Assembly: GCA_964573295.1 (NCBI GenBank)
Contig: CAZNJE010000013.1
Span: forward strand, 14,099-78,098
DNA from: an uncultured bacterium
Lineage (GTDB): Bacteria; Eisenbacteria; RBG-16-71-46; CAIMUX01; WJJG01
DNA length: 64,000 nucleotides
Reading direction: 5' to 3'
How positions within the stretch are numbered: the stretch's first letter is position 1; each line of letters begins with the position of its first letter. The notes beneath the pieces are model-generated. The model made no database searches, was not told the DNA's origin, and saw nothing but the letters and a program-made list of their open reading frames with translations. The translations under genes and the position numbers were made by a program. Positions 8,228 through 30,892 of the stretch are shown in pieces.

Positions 8228-9854
8228 AGCCCAGGCTCCGCAGGAGCTCGATATCCTCCGGCGCCAGGTCGACGGGCTCGCCGCGCGGCACCGACTCGGC
8301 CAGCCGGGCGGTGTGCTCGCGGAAGTCGGCCAGCTCACGTGTGAGGTAGGCGGCCACCGGGTGATCGGATCCGGCAAGATCGCTCTGCTCGCCGGGATCC
8401 CGGCTAACATCGAAGAACTCGGTGCCCGCGCGCACCGGCGCCCCAAAGTGGTTCTGACCGGTATCGGCGGTACCGATGAGCTTGAAGCGGGGTCCGCGCA
8501 CGGCCTGGCGCTCGATGTTGAAACGAGCATTCTCGGCATAGACCAATGCTCCCTCGCCAGTCGATGAACCAGGAGCCCGATTGCCCACCCCTTCGCCGAC
8601 TCCCCCTGATGTTGCGCCCACGCCCGGAATCCAGCGCGTCAGATCCTCCCCCTGGAATCCCTCGGGGGCGTCGAGCGACGCGAGCGACAGTAGTGTCGGC
8701 GCCAGATCGATCAGCTCGACCGGACGACCCACCACGGATCCGGCAGCACGGGCCTCGGGCAACCGCAGAATGAGCGGCACGCGGATCACCTCGTCGTAGA
8801 GCGTCCAGCCGTGGCCCTCCATCGAGCCGTGGTCGCCGAACTCCTCGCCGTGGTCGCTCATCAGCGCCACGACACAACGATCCAGATCGAGCTTTGAATC
8901 CAGAAACGCCAGCAAGCGCCCTAGATGATCGTCCGTGTAGCGGATCTCACCGTCGTAGAGCGCCACGACATGCTCGCGATCGCGCTCGGGCATCTGTGCC
9001 GGCGGCACGGGGAAGTACTTGATGTAACGTGACAGGTAGCGGTGCGTGCCCTTCGCCGGCCCGGAATACGGGGAGCCGAACATCGTGTCGTAGGGCGGCG
9101 GCGGCGAGTAGTCCATGTGCGGATCGAAGTAGTGAACGAAGAGGAAGAGGGGCCGCCCGCCATCCTGTCCGTTCCCACCACCGGCACCCTCACCGGCACC
9201 CCCACCAACACCCTCACCAACGCCCTCACCGGCGAGCGTACGCTTGAGGTACGCGTCAAGCCAGCTCGCGACGTGTCCCGTCACGTGCTCGGCCCGGTAG
9301 GCGCCCCCGCCGGAGGCCATCTGCAGATGGTCGCGGTTGATGAGCTCGCGAAACTGATCGAACCCGTGCGCGAACCCGAAGCTACGTCCCACGTAGACCC
9401 AGCTCACGAACGCCGACGTGTAGTAGCCCCCTTGCCGAAACGCCTCGGCCAGGGTGGTGACCGACTCGGCCAAGGAGACCTCGTCGTTCTCCACGCCGTG
9501 GACGCTCGCATACTGGGAGGTCATGACCGACATATGGGACGGAAGCGTCCAGGACGCCTGGCTGAACGCGTTCTCAAAGCGCACGCCCCGCGATGCGAGC
9601 ACATCGATCGCCGGGGAGGTCTCGCGCGGATAGCCGTAGCATCCCAGGTGATCGGCGCGGAGGGTGTCGATCGAGATCAGGATCACGTGTGGCGGCCGGG
9701 CCCGCTCCGCTGGACCACAGCCCAGGCCGGCCAGGACCAGGATGCCCACGACCAGCGCGAACCAGCTCGGGACGCCACGCGTGGCGGCGGCGGAGATGCC
9801 GCTGAGGTTGCCGCGCGAGGAGCGCGGCCGACGACTTTCCGAATCGTGTTCCAT
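8217..9854 (-). CDS. Sulfatase-like (alkaline phosphatase superfamily) lipoprotein
   Basis: Lipobox LAGLGC; ILISIDTLRADH, WTLPSH, HYFDPH, YDGEI, SDHGEEF and VPLILR motifs. Confidence 0.85.
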   Translation of the reverse strand: MEHDSESRRPRSSRGNLSGISAAATRGVPSWFALVVGILVLAGLGCGPAERARPPHVILISIDTLRADHLGCYGYPRETSPAIDVLASRGVRFENAFSQASWTLPSHMSVMTSQYASVHGVENDEVSLAESVTTLAEAFRQGGYYTSAFVSWVYVGRSFGFAHGFDQFRELINRDHLQMASGGGAYRAEHVTGHVASWLDAYLKRTLAGEGVGEGVGGGAGEGAGGGNGQDGGRPLFLFVHYFDPHMDYSPPPPYDTMFGSPYSGPAKGTHRYLSRYIKYFPVPPAQMPERDREHVVALYDGEIRYTDDHLGRLLAFLDSKLDLDRCVVALMSDHGEEFGDHGSMEGHGWTLYDEVIRVPLILRLPEARAAGSVVGRPVELIDLAPTLLSLASLDAPEGFQGEDLTRWIPGVGATSGGVGEGVGNRAPGSSTGEGALVYAENARFNIERQAVRGPRFKLIGTADTGQNHFGAPVRAGTEFFDVSRDPGEQSDLAGSDHPVAAYLTRELADFREHTARLAESVPRGEPVDLAPEDIELLRSLGYVR

Positions 9855-12800: not shown

Positions 12801-12865
12801 CCGAACCACAGACATTGCAAACCCCATCCTACGGATGGATTGCGCCCACACAAAGGAGGTCGCCC

Positions 12866-14302
12866 ATGCGTCGCTATCTCGTACTCGTCATCCCAATCAT
12901 CATGTTCTGCTTCATTGGATGTTCGCAGGAGGAAGTATCCTCTCCCGAACCTTCGGCAGACCAGCCTCTTGTCAGTCCCGAGCTGGAAGCCATCGCCTGG
13001 GATCTCATTGAGAAAGCACAGTGGCCCGTCGTGGCGCCCGGAGACGAGCTCGAGGCCCACGGACTCACCCAGGGCCACGGTCCCCACGGAGGCCCTCATT
13101 TCCCGCTCTTCGGCTTCGAACGTACGCGCATCCAGGGGAATATCTATCACTACTTCGTCGAGATCCCGGTCGGTCCCGGAATACATGAACGAATCGGCCT
13201 GCATCGGGTGGTCAAGGAACGCCGCCCATTCCGCCCGATCGACACCGATAAAACGCTCTTTGGCCTTCACGGCACCCCGGGGCATTTCGAGGTCATGTAC
13301 CTGGCCGGGACCGTGAGCGATGAAGTGCCCGATGATCAGTCCCTCGCCGTCTACCTGGCCGAGCACAACGTCGACGTCTGGGGCATCGATCAAGCCTACA
13401 CGCTGTTGCCGGGCGGCATCACCGACTTCTCCTTCATGGATGGCTGGGACATGGCCTTCGACGCTCAGAACCTGCGAACCGGGATGGCCGTCGCCCGTCT
13501 GGTACGGCTGATCACCGGCAGCGGCTTCGGGAAGATGAATCTGATGGGCTACAGCACGGGGTTAGCGGTCGGTTTCGCCGCCGTCAACATGGAGGCGCCA
13601 CTCCCCAACTGGCAGCGGCAGATCGGGGGCTTCATTCCGGTGGATTACTTCATGAAGACCGACGATGTCCCAAACATCGAGAGCGGGTGTGAGTATGCGG
13701 CCAGCCTCGAGGATATGCTCGCCGCAGGCGAATTTTCCACCAATGTCGGCGAGTTGTTCCAGACGATTGGCTACCTGGCAGACACCGATCCCGGGGGGGA
13801 CTCACCTATCATCCCAGACTTCAACAACTTGCAGACTGCCTTGTTCGCCGCTGCACAAACCAGCCTTTTCGCTGGATTTCCCGGTGACGCGCACTTCTTT
13901 GCCGGCATCTTCGACGATGAGACCGGCCTGCCTATCGACCTTCGCTACACTGATGTACAGCACTATCTCGATTGGCTACAGGCGTTCAACTACTACAATT
14001 CGAACTTCGTGGAGTACGACATTGCCGTCCTTCACTGTGACGAAGATGACTCGCCGCACGACGACTATCTGGACCTGATCGAGATCCCGGTCTTCTTCCT
14101 GGGCGCGAATGGGGGTTGGGGACACTTGATGGACTACACCGCCTCGCTCCTTACGAGTTGCGACGACATCGAGATCCTCAATGTCTCCCTCTACTCGCCC
14201 CAGGCCGAAGACGTCGGCCACGTGGACATCTACACCGCCGGCAATGCCGAGACAGAGTTCTGGTCGCCGGTGCTGGAGTGGATCGAAGACCACGCCGATT
14301 AG
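12866..14302 (+). CDS. Alpha/beta-hydrolase fold lipoprotein
   Basis: SD AAGGAGGT; lipobox FIGC; nucleophile elbow MGYSTG; C-terminal GHVD. Confidence 0.8.
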   Translation: MRRYLVLVIPIIMFCFIGCSQEEVSSPEPSADQPLVSPELEAIAWDLIEKAQWPVVAPGDELEAHGLTQGHGPHGGPHFPLFGFERTRIQGNIYHYFVEIPVGPGIHERIGLHRVVKERRPFRPIDTDKTLFGLHGTPGHFEVMYLAGTVSDEVPDDQSLAVYLAEHNVDVWGIDQAYTLLPGGITDFSFMDGWDMAFDAQNLRTGMAVARLVRLITGSGFGKMNLMGYSTGLAVGFAAVNMEAPLPNWQRQIGGFIPVDYFMKTDDVPNIESGCEYAASLEDMLAAGEFSTNVGELFQTIGYLADTDPGGDSPIIPDFNNLQTALFAAAQTSLFAGFPGDAHFFAGIFDDETGLPIDLRYTDVQHYLDWLQAFNYYNSNFVEYDIAVLHCDEDDSPHDDYLDLIEIPVFFLGANGGWGHLMDYTASLLTSCDDIEILNVSLYSPQAEDVGHVDIYTAGNAETEFWSPVLEWIEDHAD

Positions 14303-14373: not shown

Positions 14374-14564
14374 AACCACGGCCTCACAGGCTCGCTGGCC
14401 GGCGCAAGCCAGATCGTCCACTCCGAGACCGTCCTGACCGCAAGCTCCTGAACCACGCTTCTTTGCCAGCACGCCTCTGGCCCTGAGCCCCTGCCTACGC
14501 TAGACTTCCGGGCATGCTTCGGCTCGGGGTCGAAGCGACGCCTTGGCGGAAGGAGAGCATTCCC

Positions 14565-16427
14565 ATGGAACATCCTCGTCTGGTGATGCCAGCGGCCGGC
14601 TTGGGCCTGCTGGCGGGCACCGCAGCGTGGGCGGGCATGGCCCTGCTGGTCGGCATGATCGTGCTGGCAGGCCTGACCGCACTGGCCGGCATGGCCGTAC
14701 CGGCCGGCGCCCAGACCATCGACGCCCAGGAGTACTGGCTCGACAATGGCATGCAGGTGCTGATCGTCGAGCGCCACGAGAGCCCAACCTTCATGGCGGC
14801 GATCGCCGCGCGGGTGGGGTCGGTCAACGAGATGACCGGCATCACCGGCATTTCCCATCTTTTCGAGCACATGATGTTCAAGGGCACGAAGACGATCGGA
14901 ACGAAGGACATCGAGCGGGACCTGGCCATCATGGCCCAGCTCGATTCGCTCCGTGCCCTAATGCGCGAGGAAGAGCGCGTGATGCGCGAGGCCTTGCGTC
15001 GCGGCCGGATCGATGACATGCACGATCCCAAAGCCAAGACGCCCCGCTACCGGGAGCTGGAGGCCGGCTTCGACCGGCTGATCGAGGAGCAGCGCGAGCT
15101 GATCGTGAAGGACCAGCTCGACGAAATCTACAGCAAGCACGGCGGCACGTTCTTGAACGCTATGACATCGAACGACATGACGATGTACTTCGTGCGGCTG
15201 CCCAGAAACAAGCTCGAGCTCTTCATGTGGATGGAATCCGACCGGTTCTTGAACCCCGTCTTCCGCGAGTTCTACTCCGAGCGCAATGTGGTGCGCGAGG
15301 AACGGCGCCTGACCCTGGAATCGACCCCCACCGGCCTCATCGACGAGGACTTCGCCTCGATGTTCTGGAAGTCTTCTTCCTACCGGTGGGAGGTGATCGG
15401 CTGGCCTTCGGATCTCTACAGCATCACCCGCGAGCAGGCCGAGGACTATTTCGATACCTACTACTCTCCCAACAACCTTACGATGATCCTGGTCGGCGAC
15501 CTCGATCCCGACGAGACGATGAAGCTGGTGCGCACCTATTTCGAGCGCTTGCCGCGCGGCACGAACGAGCCGCCCGATGTGGTCACGCTGGAGGAACGCC
15601 AGTACGGCGCCAAGCGCCTGGTCGCCGAGGCCGAGACCAGCCCGCAGGTCGAGATCTGGTACCACACCGTGGCCTGGAAGCACCCCGACAGCTACCCGCT
15701 CGACGTGCTGGCCGGCCTCATGAGCGGCAAGACCGGGCGGCTGTACAAGAAGCTGGTCGAGGAGCATGGCATCGCCAAAGCCTCGGTCTCCGGAGGCGGC
15801 CGCATGATGCCCGGCGGCGACAACCTGGCCGTCCGGGCCGGCCAGGATTCACGCAAGTATGCCGGCGCGTTCCAGATCAGCGCCGAAGGCGTCTCCGACA
15901 CGCGCTCCGAGATCCTTGAAGAGGCCGTCTACGAGGTCATCGAAGACCTCAAGACCCGCCCCGTGCCCGAGCAGGAGCTGCAGAAGGTGAAGAACCAGAT
16001 GCAGGTGCGCGACATCCGATTCATGGACATCATGTCGGGGCTTGGGATCATGTTCCGTCTGGCCCCCAACGCGGCGATGGGAGACTGGACCGAGGCGAAC
16101 CGCGGGCCCGAGAAGCGCGCGCAGGTAACGGCCGAGGACGTTCGCAGGGTCGCCAACACCTACTTCGCCGACGATCAGCGCAACATCCTCAACATCAACC
16201 CCAAGGCCGGCACCGAAGTGGCCTCGGAGGATGACGGCGATGCGCGCAAAGCGCAGATCGTAGAGCGCATCAAGGCGATCAAGGATCCCGCCCAGCTCGA
16301 ACAGATGATCGGCATGGTCCAGATGGGACTCGGCCAGGTCGAAGACCCCGAGCGCAAGGCCCAGATGGAAGAGATGCTCCAGATCGCCAGCGAACACCTG
16401 GAATCGCTGAAGTCGCAAGAGAAGTAG
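14565..16427 (+). CDS. M16 family zinc peptidase, catalytic subunit
   Basis: Inverted motif HLFEH, NAMTSND, ERNVVREERR; signal peptide; SD AAGGAGAG. Confidence 0.9.
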   Translation: MEHPRLVMPAAGLGLLAGTAAWAGMALLVGMIVLAGLTALAGMAVPAGAQTIDAQEYWLDNGMQVLIVERHESPTFMAAIAARVGSVNEMTGITGISHLFEHMMFKGTKTIGTKDIERDLAIMAQLDSLRALMREEERVMREALRRGRIDDMHDPKAKTPRYRELEAGFDRLIEEQRELIVKDQLDEIYSKHGGTFLNAMTSNDMTMYFVRLPRNKLELFMWMESDRFLNPVFREFYSERNVVREERRLTLESTPTGLIDEDFASMFWKSSSYRWEVIGWPSDLYSITREQAEDYFDTYYSPNNLTMILVGDLDPDETMKLVRTYFERLPRGTNEPPDVVTLEERQYGAKRLVAEAETSPQVEIWYHTVAWKHPDSYPLDVLAGLMSGKTGRLYKKLVEEHGIAKASVSGGGRMMPGGDNLAVRAGQDSRKYAGAFQISAEGVSDTRSEILEEAVYEVIEDLKTRPVPEQELQKVKNQMQVRDIRFMDIMSGLGIMFRLAPNAAMGDWTEANRGPEKRAQVTAEDVRRVANTYFADDQRNILNINPKAGTEVASEDDGDARKAQIVERIKAIKDPAQLEQMIGMVQMGLGQVEDPERKAQMEEMLQIASEHLESLKSQEK

Positions 16428-16463
16428 TCCCTGACGAGGGATCCTATAGAGGGAGTAAGAATC

Positions 16464-18110
16464 ATGGTGTCCACCCATCTGCCCACCTGTGCGAGCACCT
16501 ACGCGTCCGGCGGCGCGACCGCCTATGCATCCACCCGTACGTCCACCCACGGAACGCGCGGGGTCTCGGCCCGCGCGTCCCTTCGAGCCGCTGTCTCCGC
16601 GCACGCGTTTCTTTGGACCACGCTGATGGCCTGCGCGCTGATCAGCCTCGCGCCGGCCTTCGCCCCAGCCTTCGGGCTGGGCTCCGCGCCGGCGCACGCC
16701 GGCGAGATCGCCGACCATCCCGACCAGCTCACCTTCCCCGAGTTGACCTTCACCCCGCCTGAGCCGGCCGATTACCGCCACGAGCTCGACTGTGGCGTCA
16801 CCGCCTACATCGCCGAGAACCATACGGTCCCGACCTTTGAACTCACGATCCTGGCGCGCACCGGATCGATGTACGAGCCGGTGGAGAAGGCCGGCCTGGC
16901 CACGATGACGGGCCACCTCATGCGAAACGGCGGCGCCGGCGAATTGACGGCCAGCGAGTTGGACGAACGGCTCGCCTACCTGGCGGGCACGATCGATGTC
17001 CGGATGCTGGACGACCAGGCCCGCGTCTCGCTGTTCTGTCTATCCAAGGATGTGGACGAGGGGTTGGATTTGCTGCGCAAGGTGCTGCGCGAGCCGCTCT
17101 TCGATCAAGCCATGCTGGAACGTCACCGGACCGACATGCTTGCCGAGCTCGAGCAAGGCAATGCCTCGACGGCGGCCATCGAAGATCGCGAGTGGGCCTT
17201 CTTGCTCTACGGCCACCATCCGTGCACGAACCGCTACCGCCGAACCGCCGCCTCGCTGGAATCGATCACGCGCGAGGATGTCAAGAGCTTCCACGCCCGT
17301 TTCTTCTTCCCTGCCAACTTCGTCGTGGCCGTCTCGGGCGACTTCGAGATTCGCGCTGCCATCGAAAGGCTGGAGAATCTCTTTGCGGACTGGCCGTCGC
17401 CGCGAATCATGATCCCGCCGGTCACCGATCAGGTCGCCGAGCCGGCACCCGGCGTCTACATGATTCCGAAGGCCGACGTGAATCAGTCCCGCGTCCGGAT
17501 CGGGCATCTGGGCGTGACGCGTGACATTCCCGAGCAGTATGCGCTCATGTTGATGAACGAAATCTTGGGCGGCGGCGGCTTCAGCTCGCGCATCACCCGT
17601 CGGGTGCGCTCCGACGAGGGTCTGGCCTACAGCACGGGAAGCCGCTTCGACCGCCCGGTAGATTATCCGGGCACGTTTCGCGCATGGTTGCAGACGAAAC
17701 ATGCCACCGCCGCGTTCGGCTCGCGTCTGATCGTCGACGAGATCGAGCGGATCCGCGACGAGCGCTGCTCCGAAGACGCTCTCGAGCTCGCGAAGGCCAG
17801 CTTCATCGGCAACCTGGTCAACCCGTTCAGCAGCAAGAGCAGCATCGTGGAGACCTTCGCCCAGGACGACTTCACCGGCCGGCCCGACGATTACTGGCAG
17901 GACTACCAAGAAAAGATCCAGTCGGTCACGCCCGAGCAGGCGCAGGAGGCCGCCCGGAAGTTCCTGCATCCCGATGAGCTGATCTTCTTGGTGGTGGGAG
18001 ACCCCGAGGCCGTCCAGGCAGGGTCGGAGAAGCACCCCGACCGTTTCTCCGACTTCGGGAAGGTCACGGTCATGCCCCTCCGAAACCCGATGACGTTGGC
18101 CTTCGAGTAG
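16464..18110 (+). CDS. M16 family peptidase, non-catalytic partner subunit
   Basis: No HxxEH; ILGGGGFSSRITRRVRSDEGLAYS motif; secretion signal. Confidence 0.85.
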   Translation: MVSTHLPTCASTYASGGATAYASTRTSTHGTRGVSARASLRAAVSAHAFLWTTLMACALISLAPAFAPAFGLGSAPAHAGEIADHPDQLTFPELTFTPPEPADYRHELDCGVTAYIAENHTVPTFELTILARTGSMYEPVEKAGLATMTGHLMRNGGAGELTASELDERLAYLAGTIDVRMLDDQARVSLFCLSKDVDEGLDLLRKVLREPLFDQAMLERHRTDMLAELEQGNASTAAIEDREWAFLLYGHHPCTNRYRRTAASLESITREDVKSFHARFFFPANFVVAVSGDFEIRAAIERLENLFADWPSPRIMIPPVTDQVAEPAPGVYMIPKADVNQSRVRIGHLGVTRDIPEQYALMLMNEILGGGGFSSRITRRVRSDEGLAYSTGSRFDRPVDYPGTFRAWLQTKHATAAFGSRLIVDEIERIRDERCSEDALELAKASFIGNLVNPFSSKSSIVETFAQDDFTGRPDDYWQDYQEKIQSVTPEQAQEAARKFLHPDELIFLVVGDPEAVQAGSEKHPDRFSDFGKVTVMPLRNPMTLAFE

Positions 18111-18364
18111 GCGGCCCCTGGAGGTGAAGTGGACCCGGCAACTCCACCCCAAGGATCTCGAGCAGATCCAGAGGCACCCCAATGCCGTCATCGCGAGCCG
18201 GGCGCGAAGCACAAGCGACCTCTTGGGGATCCCGGTTGTGCCCGTGCCCGTCGTCGCTTTGCGGATTGACCATCTTCCCCAGTGACAGACGCCGAATGGC
18301 TTGTGCCGAACGGTCGGTGCCGAATGGTTCACCGGGAGCCGCCGCATCGTAGCGACGACCGAAT

Positions 18365-19810
18365 CTAGGGCCCGCTGTCCGGCTCACGCCCGGATGAATA
18401 CCACACGCGGTACCCGGTGGGGTCCACGGTCAGCTCACCTTGCAGCGAGCCCTCCGCCACGGGGTGGAACTGCCCCTCGCGCCATTCGTACCACGCCCGG
18501 GCCGCCAGGCCCGGGGGCAACCGAAACGTAGGGCGCAGATCCGAGAGGTTCACCGCGCAGAGCATCAGCTCGCCTTCCAGCGAACGGGCATAGACCAGAA
18601 TGTCCGGATGCTCTGCGGGAATCCGTTCCAGCGAACCCCGCCGCAGGACGGCGCTGCTCCCGCGTAGCCTCGTGACATCCCTGTACAGATCGAGGTAGTC
18701 CGGATTCCCTTCGGCCCACGCCACCGACCACGGTTCACTCGGCGTCGCCGGGGTGCGGTCGGCGATCTCCTGTCCCATCAGAAGCTGAGGCGTTCCGGGT
18801 ACGGTCATCAGGAAGGCGGCATAGCCACGCACATACGGCCAGCGATAGAGCGTGCTCGAGCGCGGGCTGAAGTGATCTTCCAGGTAGATCACGGTCGTCT
18901 GGTTGGGGCCCGGAAGATCGGCGGTGGCACTCAGCGCAAGCCAGAGTTCCTCGGTCAGGCCGGGTTCGGCCATGTCCTCCATCCGGCACTCGTCGAGCCG
19001 CTCCTTGAGCCCAGACGCATAAATGGCGTGAAACCCGAGCTCGAGCGATCGCGGGTCGGCCGACTCGGCCATGAAGACGAGGCTTGGGTAGGTTTCGTGA
19101 AGATTCAAGATGAGCGCTTGCCAGAAGTCGTCCGGGGCGAGGGTGGCCAGCGCGCACCGAAAGCCATCGACGCCGGCCTCGCGTACCCAATGCTTGAGTG
19201 TGCCTTCGAGATACTCGCGCGCCGCGGCGTTGTCGAAGTCGAAATCCGCAATGCCCGTCCAGCGGGCCATCTTGCGCGTCAGGACGCCGGTGGCATCGCG
19301 GCGGAACCAGTCCGCATGCTCGTCGATCCGCACATGATTCACGGCCGCCACCGGCAAGACCACATCCAGCAGCACGCGCAACCCGCGCTCGTGTGCCGCC
19401 GTGACGAAACTCCGTAGCGCGTCCAGGTCCCCGAACTCGTCGGCTACGGCTGCGTGATCCCGAACGGCATAGAGATTCCCCAGTTCCCCGTCCCGCTCGG
19501 GCTCGCCGGTCGGGAAGATCGGGGCCAGCACGAGGTTGGCCACGCCCAGGTCCGAGACGCGATCTAGCGCTTGAGTGGCCCCATCCAGATCACCGCTCGA
19601 TGAGAATGCCCGCAAATGCAGCTCGTAGAGCGTGTGGCCCATGAACCAGTCCAGCCTCCCAGGATCCTGGTTGTGGGCCTCGACCGCACCTTCGGTCTTA
19701 CGATCCCCGCCGCATCCGGCGGTGAGAAGAAGGGCGGCGCCGAACAGGAGGGCGGCCCACACAGGCGGGCGGCGCAAGGCGTCCAGCGGGCAGGTTTCGT
19801 GCTCAATCAT
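18365..19810 (-). CDS. GH13 alpha-amylase-fold lipoprotein, predicted catalytically inactive
   Basis: Lipobox LLLTAGC; YELHLRAFS, GNLYAVRDH, FGDLDALRSFVTAAHERGLRVLLD, GVDGFRC, PQLLMGQE. The conserved Asp positions read RCAL and EDHF. Confidence 0.85.
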   Translation of the reverse strand: MIEHETCPLDALRRPPVWAALLFGAALLLTAGCGGDRKTEGAVEAHNQDPGRLDWFMGHTLYELHLRAFSSSGDLDGATQALDRVSDLGVANLVLAPIFPTGEPERDGELGNLYAVRDHAAVADEFGDLDALRSFVTAAHERGLRVLLDVVLPVAAVNHVRIDEHADWFRRDATGVLTRKMARWTGIADFDFDNAAAREYLEGTLKHWVREAGVDGFRCALATLAPDDFWQALILNLHETYPSLVFMAESADPRSLELGFHAIYASGLKERLDECRMEDMAEPGLTEELWLALSATADLPGPNQTTVIYLEDHFSPRSSTLYRWPYVRGYAAFLMTVPGTPQLLMGQEIADRTPATPSEPWSVAWAEGNPDYLDLYRDVTRLRGSSAVLRRGSLERIPAEHPDILVYARSLEGELMLCAVNLSDLRPTFRLPPGLAARAWYEWREGQFHPVAEGSLQGELTVDPTGYRVWYSSGREPDSGP

Positions 19811-20768
19811 CCTCGTCCTTCTCCTGGTTTCTAGACGCGGGCTTGGGAGGAGAGATCCGCCGCCGGGGCGGGGAGTCTCCGGCCTTCTCTTGGCTGTCAC
19901 GCAGGTAGTAGATCGACCGTGTCGGATCGGGGTCCAGACGCACGGTGCTGCGCTCGAAGACCTCGCTGAGCGCGTTCAACCACTGTAGATGCCGCGTGAT
20001 CTCGGGCGATCGTCGGTACTCGGCCGCCAAACGCGCGAAGGCGACCGAGTCGCTGCTCGCCCGTTCCCGGGCCTCGGTGGCGTGGGCCTCGGCGGCCGCG
20101 ACGCTTGCACGCGCCTCGCCACGCGCGCGCGGGACGACCGCGCCGGCGTACCCGCGGGCGTCCTGGACGATTTCCTGCTTCTGCGAGCGAGCGCTCGCCA
20201 CACGCTGGAAGGCCTCACTCACCGTCTCCGGCGGAGAGACATTCGCCAGTTCCACCGAGATGATGCGCACCCCCAGGTCGAGCCGGTCGGCCACCCGCTG
20301 GACCGAGTCACGCACCGTCTGCCTCAGGAGCGACTGCCCGCCGGTCATGGCGATATCTACGCTGACCGCGGCAAGTTCCCGGCACAGGCTTTCCTGCCCG
20401 ATGGCCCGCAACACACGATCGAGCTCCCGCACACCGAATCTCGAACGATCGAGGTCGTAGATATCGTAGCTGGCGATGGCGCTGACCATGACCAGGTTGG
20501 CATCCCCGGTAAGGAGTTCGCGCCCCTCTACGCCTACCTGCAGCTCCAGACCATGGACCTCACTCACTCGCGCCCGCGTGACCCGGTCGATGGGGTAGGG
20601 CAAATGGACATGCACCCCCGGTTCCGCCTGCCGTGCGATGACCCGGCCCCAGCGCAGGACCAGGGCCTCCTCACCGCTGGAGAGGGAGTAGACACCGCTG
20701 GCGAACCACGCGGTCAATGCGGCCCCTACGAGCAGCCCCACGAGCAGCCGGGTGTGATTACGGCGCAT
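19803..20768 (-). CDS. hflK: HflK-like SPFH protein
   Basis: TM helix then GEEALVLRWG, PGVHVHLPYPID, LLTGDANLV, PPETVSEAFQRV, ARGEA coiled-coil; stop overlaps the next ATG (ATGATTGA). Confidence 0.85.
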   Translation of the reverse strand: MRRNHTRLLVGLLVGAALTAWFASGVYSLSSGEEALVLRWGRVIARQAEPGVHVHLPYPIDRVTRARVSEVHGLELQVGVEGRELLTGDANLVMVSAIASYDIYDLDRSRFGVRELDRVLRAIGQESLCRELAAVSVDIAMTGGQSLLRQTVRDSVQRVADRLDLGVRIISVELANVSPPETVSEAFQRVASARSQKQEIVQDARGYAGAVVPRARGEARASVAAAEAHATEARERASSDSVAFARLAAEYRRSPEITRHLQWLNALSEVFERSTVRLDPDPTRSIYYLRDSQEKAGDSPPRRRISPPKPASRNQEKDEDD

Positions 20769-21804
20769 GTTGCCGCCCTCCCTTCGCGGCTGGTCCGAAA
20801 CCCTCCGCCGACCCGCGTCCCTCCGCCGACCCGCGTCCCTCCGCCGACCCGCGTCCCTTCGCCGACCCGCGTCCCTTCGCCGACTCGTATCCCTCCACTG
20901 CCCGGGATCCGGACTCCGCGGGCACGTCGCTCTCAGCACCCGGCTGCAGGGCTTCCAGGAGCGGGGAGTTCTCGTCCAGCACGATGGTGGTTTCTTCGTC
21001 GAAGATCTTCTTGTAGGCCTCCAGAGAGCGTACGAAACGATAGAAGGACAGGTCTCCCCGATAGGTGTCGCCGTAGATGCGCATGGCCTCAGCTTCCGCG
21101 GTGCCACGGATGACACCGGCCTCGTGCTCGGCCTCGGCCAAGATGGTCCGGCTGGCCAGATCGGCCTCGGCGCGAATGCGCAGCGCCTCCTCTTCCCCTT
21201 CCGCGGCGTACCTGCGCGCGATGCGGTTTCGTTCGGCGCGCATGCGCTTGTAGAGCGCGGCCTTGTTCTGTTCGGGCAACATGATCTGCTTGACGAACAC
21301 ACGCTCGATGTGAATCCCCATGCCCTCGCTGGCATCCCGCAGGGCCGCGGTCAAATCTTCGACCAGCCGGTCGAATGCGAGCTGCCCGGCATCGATATTG
21401 ACCAGCGCATCGAGATCGCATTGACCCAGCAGCATGCCCGTGAAAGAGGTCATCAGATCGGTCAACCGCAGTTCCAGGCCCTTCACGTCGCGCACCGTCT
21501 TGATGAAAACGATCGGATCGATGATGCGGTAACAGATCGCCTCCGCCAGAACGACGTTCTTCTTGTCCGCCGTCAAGAATTCCGAAGGCCGCGGTTCGAT
21601 CACCGCGAGACGCGCGTCCAGACGGCGTGGCTGATCGATCGGCGCGGGCAGCTTCCAGTAGAGACCCGGCTGGGTGATAACGCGCACCGGCTTGCCAAAG
21701 CGCTGCACGACAGTGATCTCCCCTTGCTGGGAGACGACCGTGCAGAGGAGCAGTGTCACGCCGGCCAGGACGACCAATGGAATCAGGGATAGACGTTTAT
21801 TCAT
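20758..21804 (-). CDS. hflC: HflC-like SPFH protein
   Basis: VVQRFGKP, PGLYWKLP, FLTADKKNVV, RMRAERNRIARRYAAEG, FYRFVRSLEAYKK. Confidence 0.9.
   Translation of the reverse strand: MNKRLSLIPLVVLAGVTLLLCTVVSQQGEITVVQRFGKPVRVITQPGLYWKLPAPIDQPRRLDARLAVIEPRPSEFLTADKKNVVLAEAICYRIIDPIVFIKTVRDVKGLELRLTDLMTSFTGMLLGQCDLDALVNIDAGQLAFDRLVEDLTAALRDASEGMGIHIERVFVKQIMLPEQNKAALYKRMRAERNRIARRYAAEGEEEALRIRAEADLASRTILAEAEHEAGVIRGTAEAEAMRIYGDTYRGDLSFYRFVRSLEAYKKIFDEETTIVLDENSPLLEALQPGAESDVPAESGSRAVEGYESAKGRGSAKGRGSAEGRGSAEGRGSAEGFGPAAKGGRQHAP
20801..20890. repeat. 18-bp tandem repeat x5 (CCCTCCGCCGACCCGCGT) in the HflC C-terminal tail
   Basis: Seen directly; encodes (K/E)GRGSA repeats. Confidence 0.95.
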
Positions 21805-23611
21805 AGTCGAGGTTTTCCTCTAGGGACGAAAGAACGATGCGCCGCTGGGTGGCAGCCGGCAAAATGGTGATCCGCTTTCCGGCGAGCACTTCCTCGATCG
21901 CGTCCCAGTGCAGGCGAATACGATGAACATTCTCGTCGATTCCGAAGGCGTGCTGTTGCAAGCGAAACCGGTCGGCTCCGCCCAGGGCAGCCACAACCCG
22001 GGTGATCGAATCGGCCTCGGCCGCCTTGACCAGAGCAACGGCTTGGCCACGGCTGCGGGGCACCAGTTCGTTGCTGTATTCGTGCGCCCGATGGATGACC
22101 TCGCTCTTTGTCTCCTTGGCGCTCACCACGGCCCGGTACTGTGGTACGACCGGAAGGGGCGGATGGGCTTCGAGCGAGTAGACCTGGTGGATGGCCACGC
22201 CGATGTCCAGTTCGGCCGCCCGCCGTCTCAAGCGAGGCAGCAGAGTGTCCTGAAGCCGCTGGCGATCGGACGTCAGCAAGCCGTCGAGGGGGATGTGCCG
22301 CTGCACGGCATGGACTTCATGGGCGAAGGCGGCCCGGAGGATCTCGACGGGATCCCGGGCTTGGAGCCCAAAGCGCACGGGATCGATGATCCGATAGTAG
22401 CACACCACGCGACTGTCGACGAGATTCTCATCGCCGGTCAGCGTCAGTGCCTCCTCGGGACGTGTGCGGAAGCGCCCCTGTGTATGCATCGCTTCCCATA
22501 GATTGGCGGAAAGCGAGTCATCCTCGGCATTGAGGTCGGTGCGGAATCCGAGCTCCAGGCGAGAGAGAAGACCGGTACCGATGATCTCGACCGTCCCGAA
22601 GGGCGGCGGCGCGTGAAGGTGCAGGCCGGGGCCGTGCACCGCCACCGCGCGTCCCAGGCCGATCTCGACACCTTCCTCCCAGGGCTGGACGCTGTAGAAC
22701 CCAAGCCCCCCGTAGAGCCCCAGGATCAACACGACCAGTGCGACCAGAACGAGCGGCGCATGACGTCTGATCCACGCGTCCTGGAGAAAGAACGGGGGAC
22801 GGATGCGTGCGATCCGTTCGTTCAAGCGTCGCCCACTCGCCCGCAGGCTTCGTCCGAGCTCGACCGGCCACCGGGGCAAGACGATCGCTCGCACGACGCG
22901 CTGCAGGCGCAGGGGCAGCCGTTCGAAGCCCCGGGCCAGGCTCTGCTGCATCGCCCGCCCCGTCTTCGCCAGCGAGGCGGGCCAGCGGACGCGCAGTTGG
23001 CCAACCGTGCGGATCAAGAGACGGACGGTCATATTGAGGATCGCCAGTCCGATCAAGGCCGTCATCGCGCGTTCGATGTCCAGGCCGAAATAGCCGACCA
23101 GCAACGTGACCCACACCCCGAACGAGGTCAGAAAGTCGGAATGGGTATGCGCCCCTTCGGCTTCGAAGAGCGGAGAATCGTACCGCCGTCCGATGCGCTT
23201 CTTGTAGCCGGCCATGACGAAGGTCACGACCAGCGCGCAGGAGATGCCGACAAACGCGATCACCTGATTCGGGTCGCGGGCCTGGATGAAGCGGTCGGGC
23301 GGATTCTGGACGACGTAGGTCAGAAGTTCCACGGCGCCCACGCCCATGACCCCGGCCACGCCCAGGCATAGGAGCGATTCGGCGAACCGCCCCCAGCTCT
23401 TCGATAGATAACGGTGGTTGACCAGGATCGACAGCAGCACGGTCGCGGTCACACCCAGGTCGCCCACCGAGTGGAACGTATCGGCCAGCAATACCGTGCT
23501 ACCGGTCAGACGAGAGAGACCATACAGAAGTACGATCAGCCCGGTGTCGGCGCCGATCGCGAGGAGCGAGGCGCGCACGAGGGCCTTGAAGCGAATGGAC
23601 TCCGTGGACAT
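21797..23611 (-). CDS. Fusion of a CDF cation-efflux transmembrane domain and an HflK/SPFH domain
   Basis: N-terminal LLADTFHSVGD and EGAHTHSD (CDF TM2/TM5); C-terminal FYSVQPWEEGV, LTGDENLVD, AHPPLPVVPQYRAVVSAK and VPRSRGQA (HflK); one uninterrupted ORF. Confidence 0.85.
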   Translation of the reverse strand: MSTESIRFKALVRASLLAIGADTGLIVLLYGLSRLTGSTVLLADTFHSVGDLGVTATVLLSILVNHRYLSKSWGRFAESLLCLGVAGVMGVGAVELLTYVVQNPPDRFIQARDPNQVIAFVGISCALVVTFVMAGYKKRIGRRYDSPLFEAEGAHTHSDFLTSFGVWVTLLVGYFGLDIERAMTALIGLAILNMTVRLLIRTVGQLRVRWPASLAKTGRAMQQSLARGFERLPLRLQRVVRAIVLPRWPVELGRSLRASGRRLNERIARIRPPFFLQDAWIRRHAPLVLVALVVLILGLYGGLGFYSVQPWEEGVEIGLGRAVAVHGPGLHLHAPPPFGTVEIIGTGLLSRLELGFRTDLNAEDDSLSANLWEAMHTQGRFRTRPEEALTLTGDENLVDSRVVCYYRIIDPVRFGLQARDPVEILRAAFAHEVHAVQRHIPLDGLLTSDRQRLQDTLLPRLRRRAAELDIGVAIHQVYSLEAHPPLPVVPQYRAVVSAKETKSEVIHRAHEYSNELVPRSRGQAVALVKAAEADSITRVVAALGGADRFRLQQHAFGIDENVHRIRLHWDAIEEVLAGKRITILPAATQRRIVLSSLEENLDYE

Positions 23612-23805
23612 ACGCTGCGGCCCACCGCGCTCGCATGTTTCGGGCTCGTGTGTACCCTGTTTGGCGGTACCGTGCTCGGGTCTGTCAGTTGCAGGCATCC
23701 GGCCCCCTCGTGGGTCTCAAAACCACGATACGGGGACCCCGCGCATCGGCGCGGAGCCCCCGCAAATCAGATCAATGCGTAGGACGATTCCAGCCTAGAT
23801 CGCGC

Positions 23806-25575
23806 TTACTGGAGCACGGTCAGCCGCTTCGTCTCGATGTAACCGTTGACGTCGAGCTTGTACCAGTAGGTACCGCTGGCGCAACGAAGGCCGTTGGCGT
23901 CCGTGCCGTCCCACATCAGCGAGTGGGCGCCGGCCGACATCGTCTGATCGGTCAATGTCCGAACCGTACGACCCTGCACATCGAGAATCTCCAGCGAGGC
24001 GTGCACCTCGTTGGGCAGATCGAACTTGATGTTGGTGGTCGCCCGCACCGGATTCGGCCAGTTGGCGTACAGCAGCCCGCCGGAGCGAACGTCGTCGTTC
24101 GTGCCCGGTTCGAACGGCTCGTCGTCCAGAATCGGCGTCGGCTCGTCAAACAGGGTGAAGATCGCCAGCGCAAGCTCGGTGTTGTCCAGGTAGTTGCCCA
24201 CCACCGGGTCGAGCTCATCCGCGTAGGAAGCCAGGACGTTCGAGCCATAGCCCTTGTAGAAGAACGGAATGGCCTGGTTCGTATGTCCCGCCGAATTGGT
24301 CGGATTCTGCCAGTCGTCCCCGGGAGCACTGTAGAAGTAGAAGCCGGGAACTACGCCAGGGCCGTTGTCGGCGACCGGAGCGAACCAGGTATCGGGGTTC
24401 TCCGGATCGACGCCATCACCCCACAAGAAGCCGGTCTCGTGGTCACCGGTGACCACGACCAGTGTCTCGTTCCAGTTGCTGTGGGTCTCAACCCAGTCGA
24501 CGACCGCCTGGAAGGCGTTGTTCCAGTCATTCTGCTCTTCGATCTGGCGACCCATCAGGCGGGCGTGACCCGCCCAGTCGATGGCGCCACCCTCGATCAT
24601 CAGGGCGAAGCCGTCGGCATCCTGGCCCAGGACGTTCAGTGCACCGCGCGCCATCGTCTCGAGCGTGGGGACATTCGCGATCATCGGATCGTGGTAAGGG
24701 GGGAGGGTGGTGTTGTAGTTGCCGCCGTAGGGCACGCTGTCGCCGCTGCGGTTGAACTGCAGGGTGTGCGAGACCTGGGTCACACCAAAGACCTTCTCAG
24801 CCTGGAGAGAGCCGTCGGCCAGCGCCTCGAAGTCGGCCTTCTCATCCATGAAGGTCCAATCGGTCATGCCGCTGGACAGATCCGTCCACAGATCGTAGCC
24901 GCCAACATACTTCCAGTCACCCGGCGCCTCCGGGTCGCCGGGATCCCATTGGCCGTCGGCGTCGTAGTTCGGGTGACCGCAACCCATCACGACTTCGGCA
25001 TCACTGGCGGCCAGCTCTTGGGCGATTTCGGCGTAGTTGTTGCGGCTCTCGTTGTGGGCGACGAAGGTGGCAGGGGTCGCATGGCTCAGCTGCACACTGG
25101 TAATGACGCCGGTAGCCTTGCCAAGTTCCTCGGCCCGCTCGAAGATGTGGAAAAGCGGCTCGCGCTGGCCCGGACCGTCACCGATGCTCATGCCGATTGA
25201 TCCCTTGTAGGTCTTGACGCCCGCCGACATGGCCGTACCCGCCGCCGCCGAGTCGGTGGCGTAGTTCTGCATGTACCACCAGTCGTTCCAGGCCATGTCC
25301 GGATCATAGCCGTAGATGCCGACGAAACCACCGCCACCGTACGGGGGGGTCTCGCCACCTTCGAGGTACATGTAGTTCGTCATGCCGCAGTAGTTCCACG
25401 TCGGATCCACCTCGTACTCCATTCGCTCGCCCTGGTAGTAGGCCGTGGCGTCCAAAGTGGACTGGCCCCAACCATCGGAAATCATGATGATCACGTTCTT
25501 GAGCTCGGCCTGGGCGGTTCCCACCGCTAGAACCAGCGCCAGCACGACGAGCAGTCCCTTGATGCTTCCTCGCAT
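23806..25575 (-). CDS. phoA: Secreted alkaline phosphatase with FlgD-like C-terminal domain
   Basis: IMISDGWG, TDSAAAGTA, HATPA, IEGGAIDWAGH, VTGDHETG; tail NWPNPV...WDGTDANG..CASGTYWYKL. Confidence 0.9.
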   Translation of the reverse strand: MRGSIKGLLVVLALVLAVGTAQAELKNVIIMISDGWGQSTLDATAYYQGERMEYEVDPTWNYCGMTNYMYLEGGETPPYGGGGFVGIYGYDPDMAWNDWWYMQNYATDSAAAGTAMSAGVKTYKGSIGMSIGDGPGQREPLFHIFERAEELGKATGVITSVQLSHATPATFVAHNESRNNYAEIAQELAASDAEVVMGCGHPNYDADGQWDPGDPEAPGDWKYVGGYDLWTDLSSGMTDWTFMDEKADFEALADGSLQAEKVFGVTQVSHTLQFNRSGDSVPYGGNYNTTLPPYHDPMIANVPTLETMARGALNVLGQDADGFALMIEGGAIDWAGHARLMGRQIEEQNDWNNAFQAVVDWVETHSNWNETLVVVTGDHETGFLWGDGVDPENPDTWFAPVADNGPGVVPGFYFYSAPGDDWQNPTNSAGHTNQAIPFFYKGYGSNVLASYADELDPVVGNYLDNTELALAIFTLFDEPTPILDDEPFEPGTNDDVRSGGLLYANWPNPVRATTNIKFDLPNEVHASLEILDVQGRTVRTLTDQTMSAGAHSLMWDGTDANGLRCASGTYWYKLDVNGYIETKRLTVLQ

Positions 25576-25882
25576 TGTGTCTCCTCCTTAGAGATACGAC
25601 TCCATGGCTGACTTGGGTGACTTCAAACCCAATCCCAATGTGACAACCGTCGATGACGGGGACGCGAACGACCCTCCGTGGTCCATGTGCATGCGATGAG
25701 ACGTGCTCTCCCTGAGGGAAAGTGGATTCGTCGCCAGCGGGAACCGGACGAACCGTTCACTCCCGACGCCGGGGACTATGCTCCATCGTTGTCAATGTGT
25801 AGTGTGCCGGAAATTAGGAATGCATGAATCGACCGGGAGGGATAGCTCCCGTTGGCGAATGCTGAGGGGCTGGCTGAGGCGC

Positions 25883-28800
25883 CTACTTCGTCTGGACGGC
25901 GGTCCGCCGCCCGCGCCCGAACATTCGGTAGATCGCCGGCAAAACGATCAGCGTCAGGATGTTCGCCGAGACCACCCCGCCGATCACCACGGTCGCCAGG
26001 GGCCGCTGCACCTCCGCGCCGATGCCGGTGTTGAGCGCCATGGGCACGAAACCCAGAGCGGCGACCATCGTTGTCATCAGCACCGGGCGCAGGCGCATCA
26101 GCGCGCCCTGCTCGATCGCTTCATCGGGCGGCTCGCCCGACTCCAGCCGCCGCCGCATGGTGGAGACCAGGACAAGCCCATCGAGCATCGCCACGCCGCA
26201 GACGGCCACAAAGCCGATCCCGGCCGAGACCGTGTAGGGCATGTCACGCAGCCAGAGGGCCAGGATCCCGCCCACCGCCGCAAAGGGGGCGCCGGTAAAG
26301 ATGATGAACGCGTCCCGCACCGAGTTCATGCTGTTGTAGAGCAGGAACAGAATCAGAAGCAGTGCTGCCGGTACGATAAGCCTAAGACTCCTGCGCGCCC
26401 GCTCCATATGCTCGAACTGCCCCGCCATGCGCACGAAGTAGCCCGGCGGCATGTCGACCTCCGCCGCAATTCGATCGCGGGCCTCGGCCACGAAGCTACC
26501 CACGTCACGGCCGTCGACGTTACATTGGACGACGATCCGGCGCTTCTGCCACTCCCGCGTGACCGTCGCGGGGCCTTCCACGTGCTCGATGGTCGCCAGT
26601 TGATCCAGGGGAATGCGCGCGCCGGCGGCGGTGGGTACGAGGATCCTTCGCAGGGCGTCCGGGTGATCCCGGTAGCGTTCGGGCAAGCGCAGCACCAGGT
26701 CGAACCGGCGCTGGTCCTCTCGAATCTCACCCACCCGCACGCCGCCGACCGCTTCGACCAACTCCAGCACATGCTGGGCCGAGACGCCGTGGCGCGCCAC
26801 GGCGTCCTGGTCCACCCGCACCTCGAGTATGGGCTGCCCGGTGATCTGCTCCACGTAGAGGTCGGTGGCGCCCTCGATCGAATCGAGGACATCGGCCACC
26901 TGGTCGGCGGTTTCGCGCAACCGGCCGAGGTCGTCGCCGAAGATCTTGACCCCGATGTCGGTGCGGATGCCGGCAATCATCTCGTTGACGCGCATCTCGA
27001 TCGGCTGCGTGAAGATCATGCGCATCCCGGGCAGACCTGCCAGGTCGGCGCGCATGTGCTCGACCAGCTCATCCTGCGTACTCGCCCGCGTCCACTCATC
27101 TCGCGGGGTCAGGGTGATGAAGATGTCGGTCAGCTCCATCCCCATCGGGTCGGTGGCCACCTCCGCTGTGCCGGTACGCGCCCACACATCGCGAACCTCG
27201 TCGGGAAACTTCTCGAGGATCACCTTCTCGATCTGCGTGCCGTAGCGGATCGACTCCTCCAGCGACACGCCGGCCAACCGGACGGTGTTGATGACGATGC
27301 CTCCCTCCGATAGCCGCGGAATGAATTCCGATCCGATGGTGAGCCCCAACGCCGCGGCGCCGGCCACCACCAACACCGCGCCGGCGATGACCGCACGCCG
27401 CCGCTGCAGCACGAAGTGGATGACCGGCCGGTAAAGGCGCTTCGCCAAGCGCGCGAACCAGCTCTCGCTGAATGTCTGTCCCCGCTTGAGCGCCAGGCTG
27501 GCCAGCACCGGCATGAGAGTGAGCGAGAGAATCATCGAACCCGCCAAGGCGAACAGCAGGGTCAGCGCCATCGGCCGGAAGAGCTTGCCCTCGATCCCTT
27601 CCAGAGCGAGCACGGGTAGGAAGACGACGGCGATGATGAGCTCGCCGTACATCGTGGGCATGCGCACCTCGAGGGCCGCGTCGCGCACCGTCTCTAGAAC
27701 CGAACGACGCTGATCTCCCTCGCAGCGCTCATCTCCCTCGGAAAGCTTTCTGACGCTATTCTCCACCATGACGACCGAGCTGTCGACGAGCAGACCGAAG
27801 TCGATTGCCCCCAGGCTCAGCAGGCTGCCGGCGATGCCGAAGCGAGCCATCCCCTGAGCCGCGAAAAGCATCGACAGCGGGATCGCCGAGGCCACGATCA
27901 AGCCGGCGCGGATGTTGCCGAGGAAGGCGAAGAGCACCGCGATCACCAAAAGGGCGCCAAGCAACAGGTTCTCCTCGACGGTCCTGAGCACTTCGTCGAC
28001 GAGCTCGGTTCGTTCGTAGACCGGCCGGATCTCGACCCCCGCGGGCAGGATCTTGCGGATCTCCTCCATCCGCTGCTGCAGGCGGGTCGTCACCTCGTGG
28101 CTGTTCTCGCCCATCAGCATGAAGCCGAGCCCCAGCACGACCTCACCCTCGCCGTTGGCGGTCACCGCCCCGCGGCGAATCTCGTACCCCTCGCGGACCT
28201 CGCCAATGTCGCGCACGTGGACCGGCACGCCGTCGTGGGCGGTGATCACGATGTTGCCGATCTCCTCGAGGCTGGTCGTGAGGCTCACCCCCTGGACCAG
28301 ATGAAGCTCGCCGGCTTGCTCCAGGTACCCGCCGCCGACATTGAGATTGTTGCGCGCCAGGGCACCGGCGACCTCGTCGAAGGTGAGCTCGTACTTCGTC
28401 AGTCGCACGGGATCGATCATCACGTGGAACTGCTTCTTCTCGCCGCCCCAGGTGTTGACCTCCGCCACCCCGGCGACCGACTGCAATCGCGGCTTGATGA
28501 CCCAATCGTGCAGGGTGGTCAGCTCCCGCAACGTGTGCGTCTCGCTGGAGAGGACGTAGTGGTAGATCTCCCCCAGTCCGGTCGCCACCGGCCCCATCTG
28601 GGGCTGGGCGATGCCCTCGGGCAGCTGGGCCCCTTGCAGACGTTCCATCACGAGCTGGCGGGCGAAGTAGATATCGGTGCCGTCTTCGAAGATCACGGTC
28701 ACCTGCGACAGTCCGAACTTCGAGATCGAGCGGACCTCCTCCAGGCCCGGCAACCCCGAGATCGCCCGTTCGACGGGGAAGCTGATCTGTTGCTCGATCT

Positions 28801-30737: not shown

Positions 30738-30892
30738 GGCTATTCTCCTCCCGATGTGCACGCGAGCGTGCCCGCTGATCGACACGTGCGTGCGCATGAC
30801 GGCGGCCTACTCTGCTCGGATGCCTGCCGGCAAAGAGTCCGCCCGTTGTCTGTTCGGACAAGAAAGGTTGGTGGTGATGGCGAGACCGGGTA

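Follow-up and report, generated by a model that had tools for sequence, protein, structure and literature searches.

Why would a bacterium keep an intact gene for a glycoside hydrolase that is probably no longer able to cleave its substrate, and what would its product do? The question is raised by a gene, here called GH13L, on the minus strand of a 64,000-nucleotide stretch of DNA from an uncultured bacterium of the Eisenbacteria (assembly GCA_964573295.1, contig CAZNJE010000013.1; the whole stretch is hereafter the window). GH13L occupies positions 18365..19810, starts with an ATG at 19810 and encodes 481 amino acids plus a stop. A first-pass annotation had described its product as a lipoprotein of glycoside hydrolase family 13 (GH13) lacking two of the three catalytic residues. 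Members of this family are recognised by a (β/α)8 barrel with domains B and C, a catalytic triad formed by Asp (strand β4), Glu (β5) and Asp (β7), four to seven conserved regions and a retaining cleavage (PMC11239784). In the present study we conclude that GH13L is very probably a non-hydrolytic descendant of GH13 kept by selection, and not a decaying gene. Its invariant pairing with a gene for an alkaline phosphatase is our main new result and the main clue to its function.

Loss of the catalytic residues

The motifs of GH13L were placed with phmmer against its best solved relatives, 4GKL (1e-43) and 3DHU (1.5e-38), and independently with MAFFT in an alignment with 157 relatives, which had been found by searching 1.8 billion representatives exhaustively. 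A misalignment of the motifs was considered and discarded, as the phmmer-to-PDB and two MAFFT alignments agree and the flanks GFRC, LE-H and AE are in register. Both comparisons reproduce the substitutions that the first-pass annotation had read from the letters, that is, the nucleophile Asp replaced by Ala, the region IV Asp replaced by Phe and the region I His absent (Table 1); no acidic residue occupies either of the two Asp positions in the alignment with 4GKL and 3DHU. The triad positions of GH13L are therefore Ala220 (codon GCG at 19151-19153), Glu249 and Phe314 (codon TTC at 18869-18871), with the Glu alone present. Regions I, II, III, IV and VII are nevertheless found in register, with their key residues substituted. 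The absence of the nucleophile predicts that GH13L cannot run the retaining mechanism of GH13.

The change extends beyond the triad. In the 126 relatives that hold all three triad residues, termed canonical, the Asp equivalent to Asp135 of AmyB (4GKL) is conserved in 100% and the region IV Asn in 96%; GH13L has Gly186 and Asp312 at these positions. Active relatives show strong conservation at roughly 51 positions. GH13L retains about 42 of them, including Tyr114 (the stacking Tyr), Asp118, His140, Asp149, Arg218, Glu249, His313 and Glu348, and the nine that changed include the sugar-contacting Asp186, Asp220, Asn312 and Asp314 (residues of the relatives, numbering of GH13L). His103 and Asp135 form the non-reducing-end sugar site of AmyB (PMC11239784), and the equivalents of both are lost in GH13L. 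In the clade of homologues to which GH13L belongs (described below), every member carries substitutions of the nucleophile and of both the Asp and the Asn of region IV, and most of them also at the position equivalent to Asp135.

The nucleophile position is occupied across the clade by Ala, Pro, Thr, Leu or Ile and never by an acidic residue. A replacement catalytic acid at or beside this position was sought and rejected, since both this residue and the following one vary from member to member, and thus no new catalytic residue is indicated at the nucleophile site. The earlier statement that the acid/base Glu remains is correct for GH13L itself and does not extend to the whole clade: in the sub-clade of P0012 type (P numbers denote homologous proteins) this Glu is replaced by Asp and the region IV His by Arg, and therefore no catalytic apparatus is common to the clade. 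Within the old site, invariance across all members was found for Arg218, Glu311 and Asp312 only. Residues conserved specifically in the clade are Gly58, His119, Leu152, Trp290, Asp312, Ala419, Phe429, Phe448 and Trp470, and no new phosphate-binding residue was found among these clade-specific positions.

In chloride-dependent amylases the anion is bound jointly by the Arg of region II and the Asn of region IV (Arg195 and Asn298 in human pancreatic amylase), and the side chains of these residues must be neighbours because they bind it together. The invariant change of the Asn into Asp312 may thus have given a new partner to Arg218, which has lost the acidic residues that normally surround it. 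Such a predicted pairing points to a site that was neutralised and not re-armed.

Fold and family assignment

Despite these losses the fold appears complete. Pfam recognises PF00128 (2.3e-21) and Malt_amylase_C (PF16657; 2.7e-7), both over their cut-offs, and none of the NCBIfam enzyme models comes near its cut-off, the best being that of the haloarchaeal GH13_49 MalA with 115 bits versus 875. The AlphaFold2 model (predicted local distance difference test 84.4, predicted template modelling score 0.83) consists of a (β/α)8 barrel followed by a C-terminal β domain. In a Foldseek search the top matches are all GH13 structures, with 4GKL and 3DHU first and a TM-score of 0.85 for 4GKL (normalised to the target). 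The barrel and domains B and C are therefore recovered by AlphaFold2, Foldseek and Pfam. Together with the open reading frame and a PROSITE-type lipobox pattern, these results bear out the first-pass description of an intact 481-residue GH13 lipoprotein with its C-terminal domain.

Subfamily GH13_48 is marked by a Cys before the nucleophile, a region VII ending in Gly-Gln and a region V ending in Leu-[Asp/Asn] (PMC11239784). The signature Cys of GH13_48/49 is present in GH13L (GFRC-A), its orthologues having Cys or Phe. The Gly-Gln of region VII is likewise present (PGTPQLLMGQE), GQE being invariant in the clade. Region V reads IADFD in GH13L, thus ending in Phe-Asp, and VVDLE or VAELN in some clade members; AmyB itself has VVDFD. 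The AmyB-type proteins are the nearest both by sequence and by fold, as judged from matches in the PDB. By sequence and descent GH13L falls within the GH13_48/49 neighbourhood, which was delimited in 2024, and because only the Glu of the triad is present we name it a GH13_48-like pseudo-enzyme and not an α-amylase.

Phylogeny and selection

The close homologues P0002-P0007 and P0010 (85-43% identity) all show the same losses as GH13L. In a further group, comprising P0011, P0012, P0013, P0015, P0045 and the genes of loci L012, L013, L131 and L132 (35-46% identity), the region I Asn-His is kept, and the nucleophile and region IV Asp are gone. Thus all orthologues and the sister group, down to about 35% identity, are devoid of both Asp residues, and the first relative with a full triad is P0014, at 34% identity. 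In a neighbour-joining tree 50 of 50 bootstraps recover the whole pseudo-enzyme clade as monophyletic, and its core group likewise, and P0011, P0012 and P0013 branch at the base. Since Asn-His is still present in region I of these basal members, the loss of the nucleophile and of the region IV Asp would have come first; the simplest history suggested by the tree is one ancient loss of both Asp residues, then the loss of Asn-His in the lineage of the window.

The ratio of non-synonymous to synonymous substitution rates (dN/dS) of GH13L is 0.24 against the gene of locus L008 (85% identity; dS 0.36) and 0.21 against that of L001 (62% identity), values as low as those of four neighbouring genes (0.12-0.27), and more than 12 independent assemblies carry an undisrupted frame. 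These ratios, the monophyly and the confident fold prediction agree with the earlier view of a selected pseudo-enzyme. That view had been argued from the intact frame, lipobox and C-terminal domain and from the codons, with two or more substitutions demanded by each Asp change. The codon count is right for Asp to Phe; Asp to Ala needs a single non-synonymous step (GAC to GCC), to which GCG adds a silent one. The codon count is a weak argument for selection and is not needed.

The clade is rare in public data. A word-indexed protein search returned 7-8 members, a scan of metagenome contigs added one split locus (L056/L057), and the exhaustive search of representatives added P0010-P0013, P0015 and P0045. 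The relatives of GH13L all come from uncultured metagenome bins. Two loci hold damaged copies. L016 (9644-9901), in a Candidatus Eisenbacteria bin, has the C-terminal third of a homologue only (58% identity, region IV LENQFSQR) with no homologous sequence 5' of the fragment, which is either a genuine relic or the product of a chimeric contig. At L007 (3635-3874 and 3835-5028) P0007 was called without its N-terminus and a small open reading frame in another frame overlaps its start; it probably carries a frameshift, from an assembly error or a real lesion.

About ten representatives outside the clade also appear without the nucleophile Asp or the whole triad in the MAFFT alignment (P0031, P0042, P0057, P0094, P0099, P0109, P0110, P0143, P0155 and P0157), and the loss of catalysis thus seems to have recurred in the GH13_48-like subfamily.

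Conserved pairing with an alkaline phosphatase

A phosphatase gene with an FlgD_ig tail lies upstream of GH13L, on the same strand, in 12 of the 12 loci with upstream DNA, namely the window, L008, L001, L004, L005/L006, L007, L057, the P0011 contig, L012, L013, L131 and L132; the contigs of P0006, P0010 and P0013 start at the gene and are uninformative. The first-pass annotation did not mention this partner. The two genes are separated in four lineages (window, L008, L001 and L004) by a trio encoding a CDF-HflK fusion (CDF, cation diffusion facilitator), an HflC-like and an HflK-like protein. They are directly adjacent, with gaps of 45-145 nt, in L005/L006, L007, L057, the P0011 contig, L012 and L013, and in L131 and L132 a 456-residue GH13-like gene stands immediately 3' of the phosphatase. 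Beyond the pair the flanking genes vary between loci. When the search was made from the phosphatase side, two of three orthologues on long contigs had GH13L immediately downstream; the phosphatases of L131 and L132 show 57% and 56% identity. As read from its sequence, the phosphatase of the window keeps the catalytic Ser and the metal-ligand motifs (DSAAAGT, IDWAGH, GDHE and AGHT).

A hairpin with a stem of 12-17 bp follows the phosphatase stop in every locus examined for it (the window, L008, L001, L004, L005, L007, L012, L013 and L057), in some of them with a T-run behind. Termination, attenuation or stabilisation of the mRNA are its possible roles, and it may in this way set the ratio between phosphatase and downstream expression. 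In L005 the whole gap between phosphatase and GH13L amounts to 61 nt, and for this reason read-through is likelier than a separate promoter.

The nearest relative with a full triad and an examined locus is that of L014 (32% identity), a lipoprotein with the motifs DMVINH, GYRCDVAG, AEWE and IENHDQER. Its gene directly follows those of a CBM20 protein with a sorting tail of the type IX secretion system (T9SS) and of a PorV-like protein. As this active relative has it, the layout in which a GH13 lipoprotein comes after a secreted tailed protein is older than the loss of activity, the tailed partner being a phosphatase in the pseudo-enzyme clade versus a starch-binding protein in L014.

Other genes were observed next to the pair. 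A PAP2-family phosphatase gene is located directly 3' of GH13L on the same strand in the lineage of P0005/P0006 (L005 5320-5958, L006 3892-4530 and L009 1669-2307), and in L004 such a gene stands in this place on the opposite strand (8836-9627); PAP2 is thus a second hydrolase of phosphate esters close to GH13L. In L132 (899-6708) a T9SS-tailed pullulanase (PUD, CBM48) and a canonical 554-residue GH13 directly precede the pair on the same strand.

Gene model, export signal and neighbouring genes

A longer frame for GH13L, from a GTG, spans 18365..19900 on the minus strand. We prefer the ATG at 19810, because three features agree on it: start and length are common to the 85%-identical orthologue P0002, a purine-rich GGAGAAGGACGAGG lies just 5', and the start overlaps the stop of the preceding HflK-like gene by 8 nt (ATGATTGA). 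The product begins with a signal peptide ending in the lipobox FGAALLLTAGC, with Cys33 as the invariant Cys; this fits the PROSITE-type pattern, and GH13L is by this definition a bacterial lipoprotein whose lipidation is predicted. The lipobox Cys is kept in full-length orthologues and in the active relative of L014. A Tat signal from Arg13-Arg14 was rejected, these residues being outside an RRxFLK-like context and missing in the 85%-identical orthologue.

Table 1. Features of the GH13L locus (positions in the window)
Feature	Position	Strand	Evidence or remarks
CusB/CzcB-like membrane-fusion protein	29082-30797	-	
RND pump	25883-28978	-	
PhoA-type alkaline phosphatase with FlgD_ig/T9SS-type C-terminal sorting domain	23806..25575	-	PF00245 3.5e-49, PF13860, PF18962, TIGR04183
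GC-rich hairpin, 16-bp stem then TCGTGGTTTT, just 3' of phosphatase stop	23729..23764	-	terminator or attenuator
CDF membrane domain fused to HflK-like SPFH domain	21797..23698	-	PF01545, PF01145, TIGR01297, TIGR01933
HflC-like SPFH protein	20758..21804	-	TIGR01932 hflC 160.7 bits, cut-off 134.4
HflK-like SPFH protein	19803..20768	-	Band_7 1.7e-15; TIGR01933 hflK 157 bits, cut-off 159
GH13L, GH13_48-like pseudo-glycosidase lipoprotein	18365..19810	-	open reading frame, Pfam, 4GKL match, AlphaFold2, dN/dS
Signal peptide and lipobox, residues 1-33 (Cys33 at 19712-19714)	19712..19810	-	PROSITE-type pattern
Region I, DVVLPV (AmyB DMVLNH): Asn-His to Pro153-Val154	19349..19366	-	alignments
Region II, GVDGFRCALAT (AmyB DGFRCDVAG): nucleophile Asp to Ala220; Arg218, Cys219 kept	19142..19174	-	alignments
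Region III, FMAES (AmyB SE): acid/base Glu249 kept	19061..19075	-	alignments
Region IV, YLEDHFSPR (against FLENHDQPR; AmyB LENHDQPR): Asn to Asp312, His313 kept, transition-state Asp to Phe314	18860..18886	-	alignments
Domain C (β-sandwich), intact	18392..18637	-	Malt_amylase_C residues 392-468; AlphaFold2 β strands 393-473

The window has a G+C content of about 65%, which, like the FlgD_ig/T9SS-type tails, is compatible with a tentative placement near the Candidatus Eisenbacteria bin of L016, the only relative from a named bin. The CDF-HflK, HflC, HflK and GH13L genes are chained by overlaps of 8-11 nt. No sigma-70-type promoter was found in 17900-26200, a result that is uninformative for this lineage. 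The three-gene CDF-HflK/HflC/HflK module is unusual; it is kept in L008, L001 and L004, and in the window it stands 3' of the phosphatase, which belongs to a zinc-dependent family, and of the RND/CzcB-like pair. The C-terminus of the HflC-like protein (about 20770-20890, minus strand) has some five tandem copies of GRGSA(K/E), an alternative frame repeating GRRRDA; this repeat looks lineage-specific, since the orthologue in L001 is 44 residues shorter. On the plus strand, a 495-residue predicted lipoprotein (FIGCSQ; 12815-14302) without a Pfam match is followed 3' by a pair of M16 (insulinase-type) peptidases (14514-18110), which converges on GH13L.

Discussion

The loss of catalytic residues, the purifying selection, the intact predicted fold, the lipobox and the conserved gene pairing are directly supported, and they are the basis of our proposal. 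GH13L would be a lipid-anchored, exported protein descended from lipoprotein α-amylases of GH13_48 type. The ancestor of the clade would have lost the nucleophile and the transition-state Asp, the lineage of the window later losing the region I Asn-His, with barrel and C domain retained under ordinary purifying selection. In this mechanism GH13L may assist, without any catalysis of its own, the secreted PhoA-type phosphatase encoded upstream, with transcription probably passing through the hairpin 3' of the phosphatase gene. In the window's lineage GH13L would also be translationally coupled to the HflK/HflC/CDF-HflK membrane module. The conserved pairing suggests that a non-catalytic lipoprotein working together with an extracytoplasmic phosphatase may well be the right description, a proposal that we hold with about even confidence. 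The mode of action is more tentative; the likeliest would be binding, either of a glycan-type ligand or of the phosphatase itself, which might thereby be held at the envelope, so that phosphate would be released next to the cell.

Several observations weigh against this proposal. The link between phosphatase and GH13L is one of gene order, and a physical or functional link is putative. All loci come from one poorly sampled lineage, and the synteny may partly reflect inherited gene order. The phosphatase orthologue of L133 stands without GH13L, with an IS91 transposase next to it and IS91 elements flanking. The hairpin between the phosphatase and the downstream genes is terminator-like, and separate transcription is possible. 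L132 is the only locus with genuine α-glucan enzymes near GH13L. Finally, several ligands of the -1 subsite are gone (the region I His, the equivalent of AmyB Asp135 and the Asp of region IV, where a bulky Phe now stands), and canonical glucose binding may therefore be lost too.

The alternative that survives best, although we consider it rather unlikely, is a stand-alone lipoprotein that binds α-glucans or maltooligosaccharides in the manner of a surface glycan-binding protein, the phosphatase linkage being nothing else than inherited gene order. The descent from lipoprotein amylases of starch loci, the enzymes upstream on the same strand in L132 and the retention of the stacking Tyr114, Arg218, Glu249 and His313, together with the aromatic residues Trp184, Trp208, Phe229 and Phe260, are all consistent with it. 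However, starch and maltodextrin genes are absent from the window and most other loci, the pairing with the phosphatase persists down to 37% identity while other neighbours change, and four contacts of the -1 subsite are lost, with hydrophobic residues in their place.

The accessory role and glucan binding may also be combined. Phosphatase and GH13L would then constitute a two-protein glucan phosphatase at the cell surface, GH13L recognising the α-glucan chains and presenting them to a PhoA-type enzyme that itself lacks a carbohydrate-binding module. A -1 pocket that has lost precisely its contacts to O6, O2/O3 and the non-reducing end might tolerate a phosphorylated glucose, and the pair would correspond in bacteria to SEX4 or laforin, made from separate parts. 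We regard this more specific version as distinctly unlikely.

Very doubtful is a role of GH13L as periplasmic partner of the CDF-HflK/HflC/HflK assembly, in which the GH13 fold would be an escort or scaffold as 4F2hc/rBAT are for SLC7. GH13L is indeed the last cistron of a four-gene block in the window, L008, L001 and L004, overlapping the HflK-like gene by 8 nt (start/stop) in the first three and separated from it by 3 nt in L004, and GH13 pseudo-enzymes as transporter subunits are an established precedent (PMC11239784). Yet L005/L006, L007, L012, L013, L057, the P0011 contig, L131 and L132 are devoid of the trio, and since most clade members thus lack it, the trio is not the ancestral or general partner of GH13L.

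An enzyme with another chemistry is more improbable still. It might be an inverting phosphorylase or natural glycosynthase, with phosphate or an activated donor taking the room vacated by the nucleophile, or else an enzyme whose substrates are phospho-sugars. GH13L keeps Glu249, Arg218 and His313 in a pocket that has lost two negative charges, a phosphate theme is found nearby (the alkaline phosphatase, and the PAP2 genes downstream in L005, L006 and L009), and for GH130 a switch between hydrolase and phosphorylase is known in which acidic and basic residues are exchanged (PMC4599007). The clade shows no new conserved basic residue, its sole new invariant polar residue being Asp312, the vacated positions hold variable hydrophobic residues, and the changes of P0012 type leave nothing catalytic clade-wide; these observations disfavour a new chemistry. 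It further counts against this alternative that an exported phosphorylase would, to our knowledge, be unusual.

A decaying pseudogene or a sequencing artefact, for which one might invoke the fragment of L016, the apparent frameshift of L007 and the 17 of 364 triad-less sequences that a GH13_48/49 survey dropped as likely errors or pseudogenisation (PMC11239784), has a negligible probability, decay of the window gene being ruled out by its dN/dS, by the intact frame elsewhere, by substitutions common to a deep clade monophyletic in all bootstraps, and by the confident fold prediction.

GH13 ranks among the most thoroughly studied enzyme families. At least one triad-less group, of the kind discarded by that survey, is therefore a bacterial lineage of long standing that selection has maintained and whose genomic partner is constant, and the automatic annotation of the genes of this clade as α-amylases is to be considered wrong. 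In our literature search no description was found of a bacterial clade of GH13 pseudo-enzymes or of an Eisenbacteria/alkaline phosphatase link. If the partnership is true, a bacterial glycosidase fold has been re-used as a phosphatase accessory, which would represent one arrangement by which uncultured bacteria with T9SS-type secretion might scavenge phosphate outside the cell.

Comparison with known systems

GH13L has the same A-B-C domain layout as two GH13_48 proteins, the maltogenic amylase AmyB of Thermotoga neapolitana (4GKL) and the amylase of Lactobacillus plantarum (3DHU). It differs from AmyB-type enzymes by the absence of the nucleophile, the transition-state Asp, the region I Asn-His and the equivalents of His103/Asp135, and by being an exported lipoprotein encoded in a phosphatase operon and not in a starch locus. 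A departure of a whole GH13 clade from the Asp/Glu/Asp triad is also seen with BmaN1 (GH13_45), in which only the transition-state Asp is changed, to His, and which is active on starch; BmaN1 keeps the nucleophile, whereas the clade of GH13L is devoid of it.

For the glucan-phosphatase version of our proposal the analogues are SEX4 and LSF2 of plants and laforin of animals, dual-specificity phosphatases with a fused CBM20 or CBM48. In both cases a phosphatase would be brought to an α-glucan by a non-catalytic unit. In contrast with SEX4 and laforin, the present pair, known from its genes, consists of two distinct polypeptides, a PhoA-type enzyme and a protein derived from GH13. Plant ISA2, a non-catalytic isoamylase subunit with substituted catalytic residues, is likewise kept by selection and works through a partner, the active GH13 paralogue ISA1 of starch metabolism. 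The conserved neighbour of GH13L is instead a phosphatase, and an active paralogue is not adjacent in most loci.

The heavy subunits of amino-acid transporters of the heteromeric type, namely rBAT and 4F2hc, are recognised non-enzymatic members of GH13 (PMC11239784). GH13L resembles them in having a GH13 barrel and C domain without catalytic machinery and, as far as its inferred partner is concerned, in serving as an extracytoplasmic accessory. No SLC7-type gene is present in the examined GH13L loci, and no structure of 4F2hc or rBAT is among the top PDB matches by sequence or by fold. Both are type II membrane glycoproteins of eukaryotes, joined by a disulphide to SLC7 transporters and akin to subfamilies of oligo-1,6-glucosidase type. 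GH13L, in contrast, would be a bacterial lipoprotein of the GH13_48 lineage, in which a lipoprotein signal takes the place of the transmembrane anchor.

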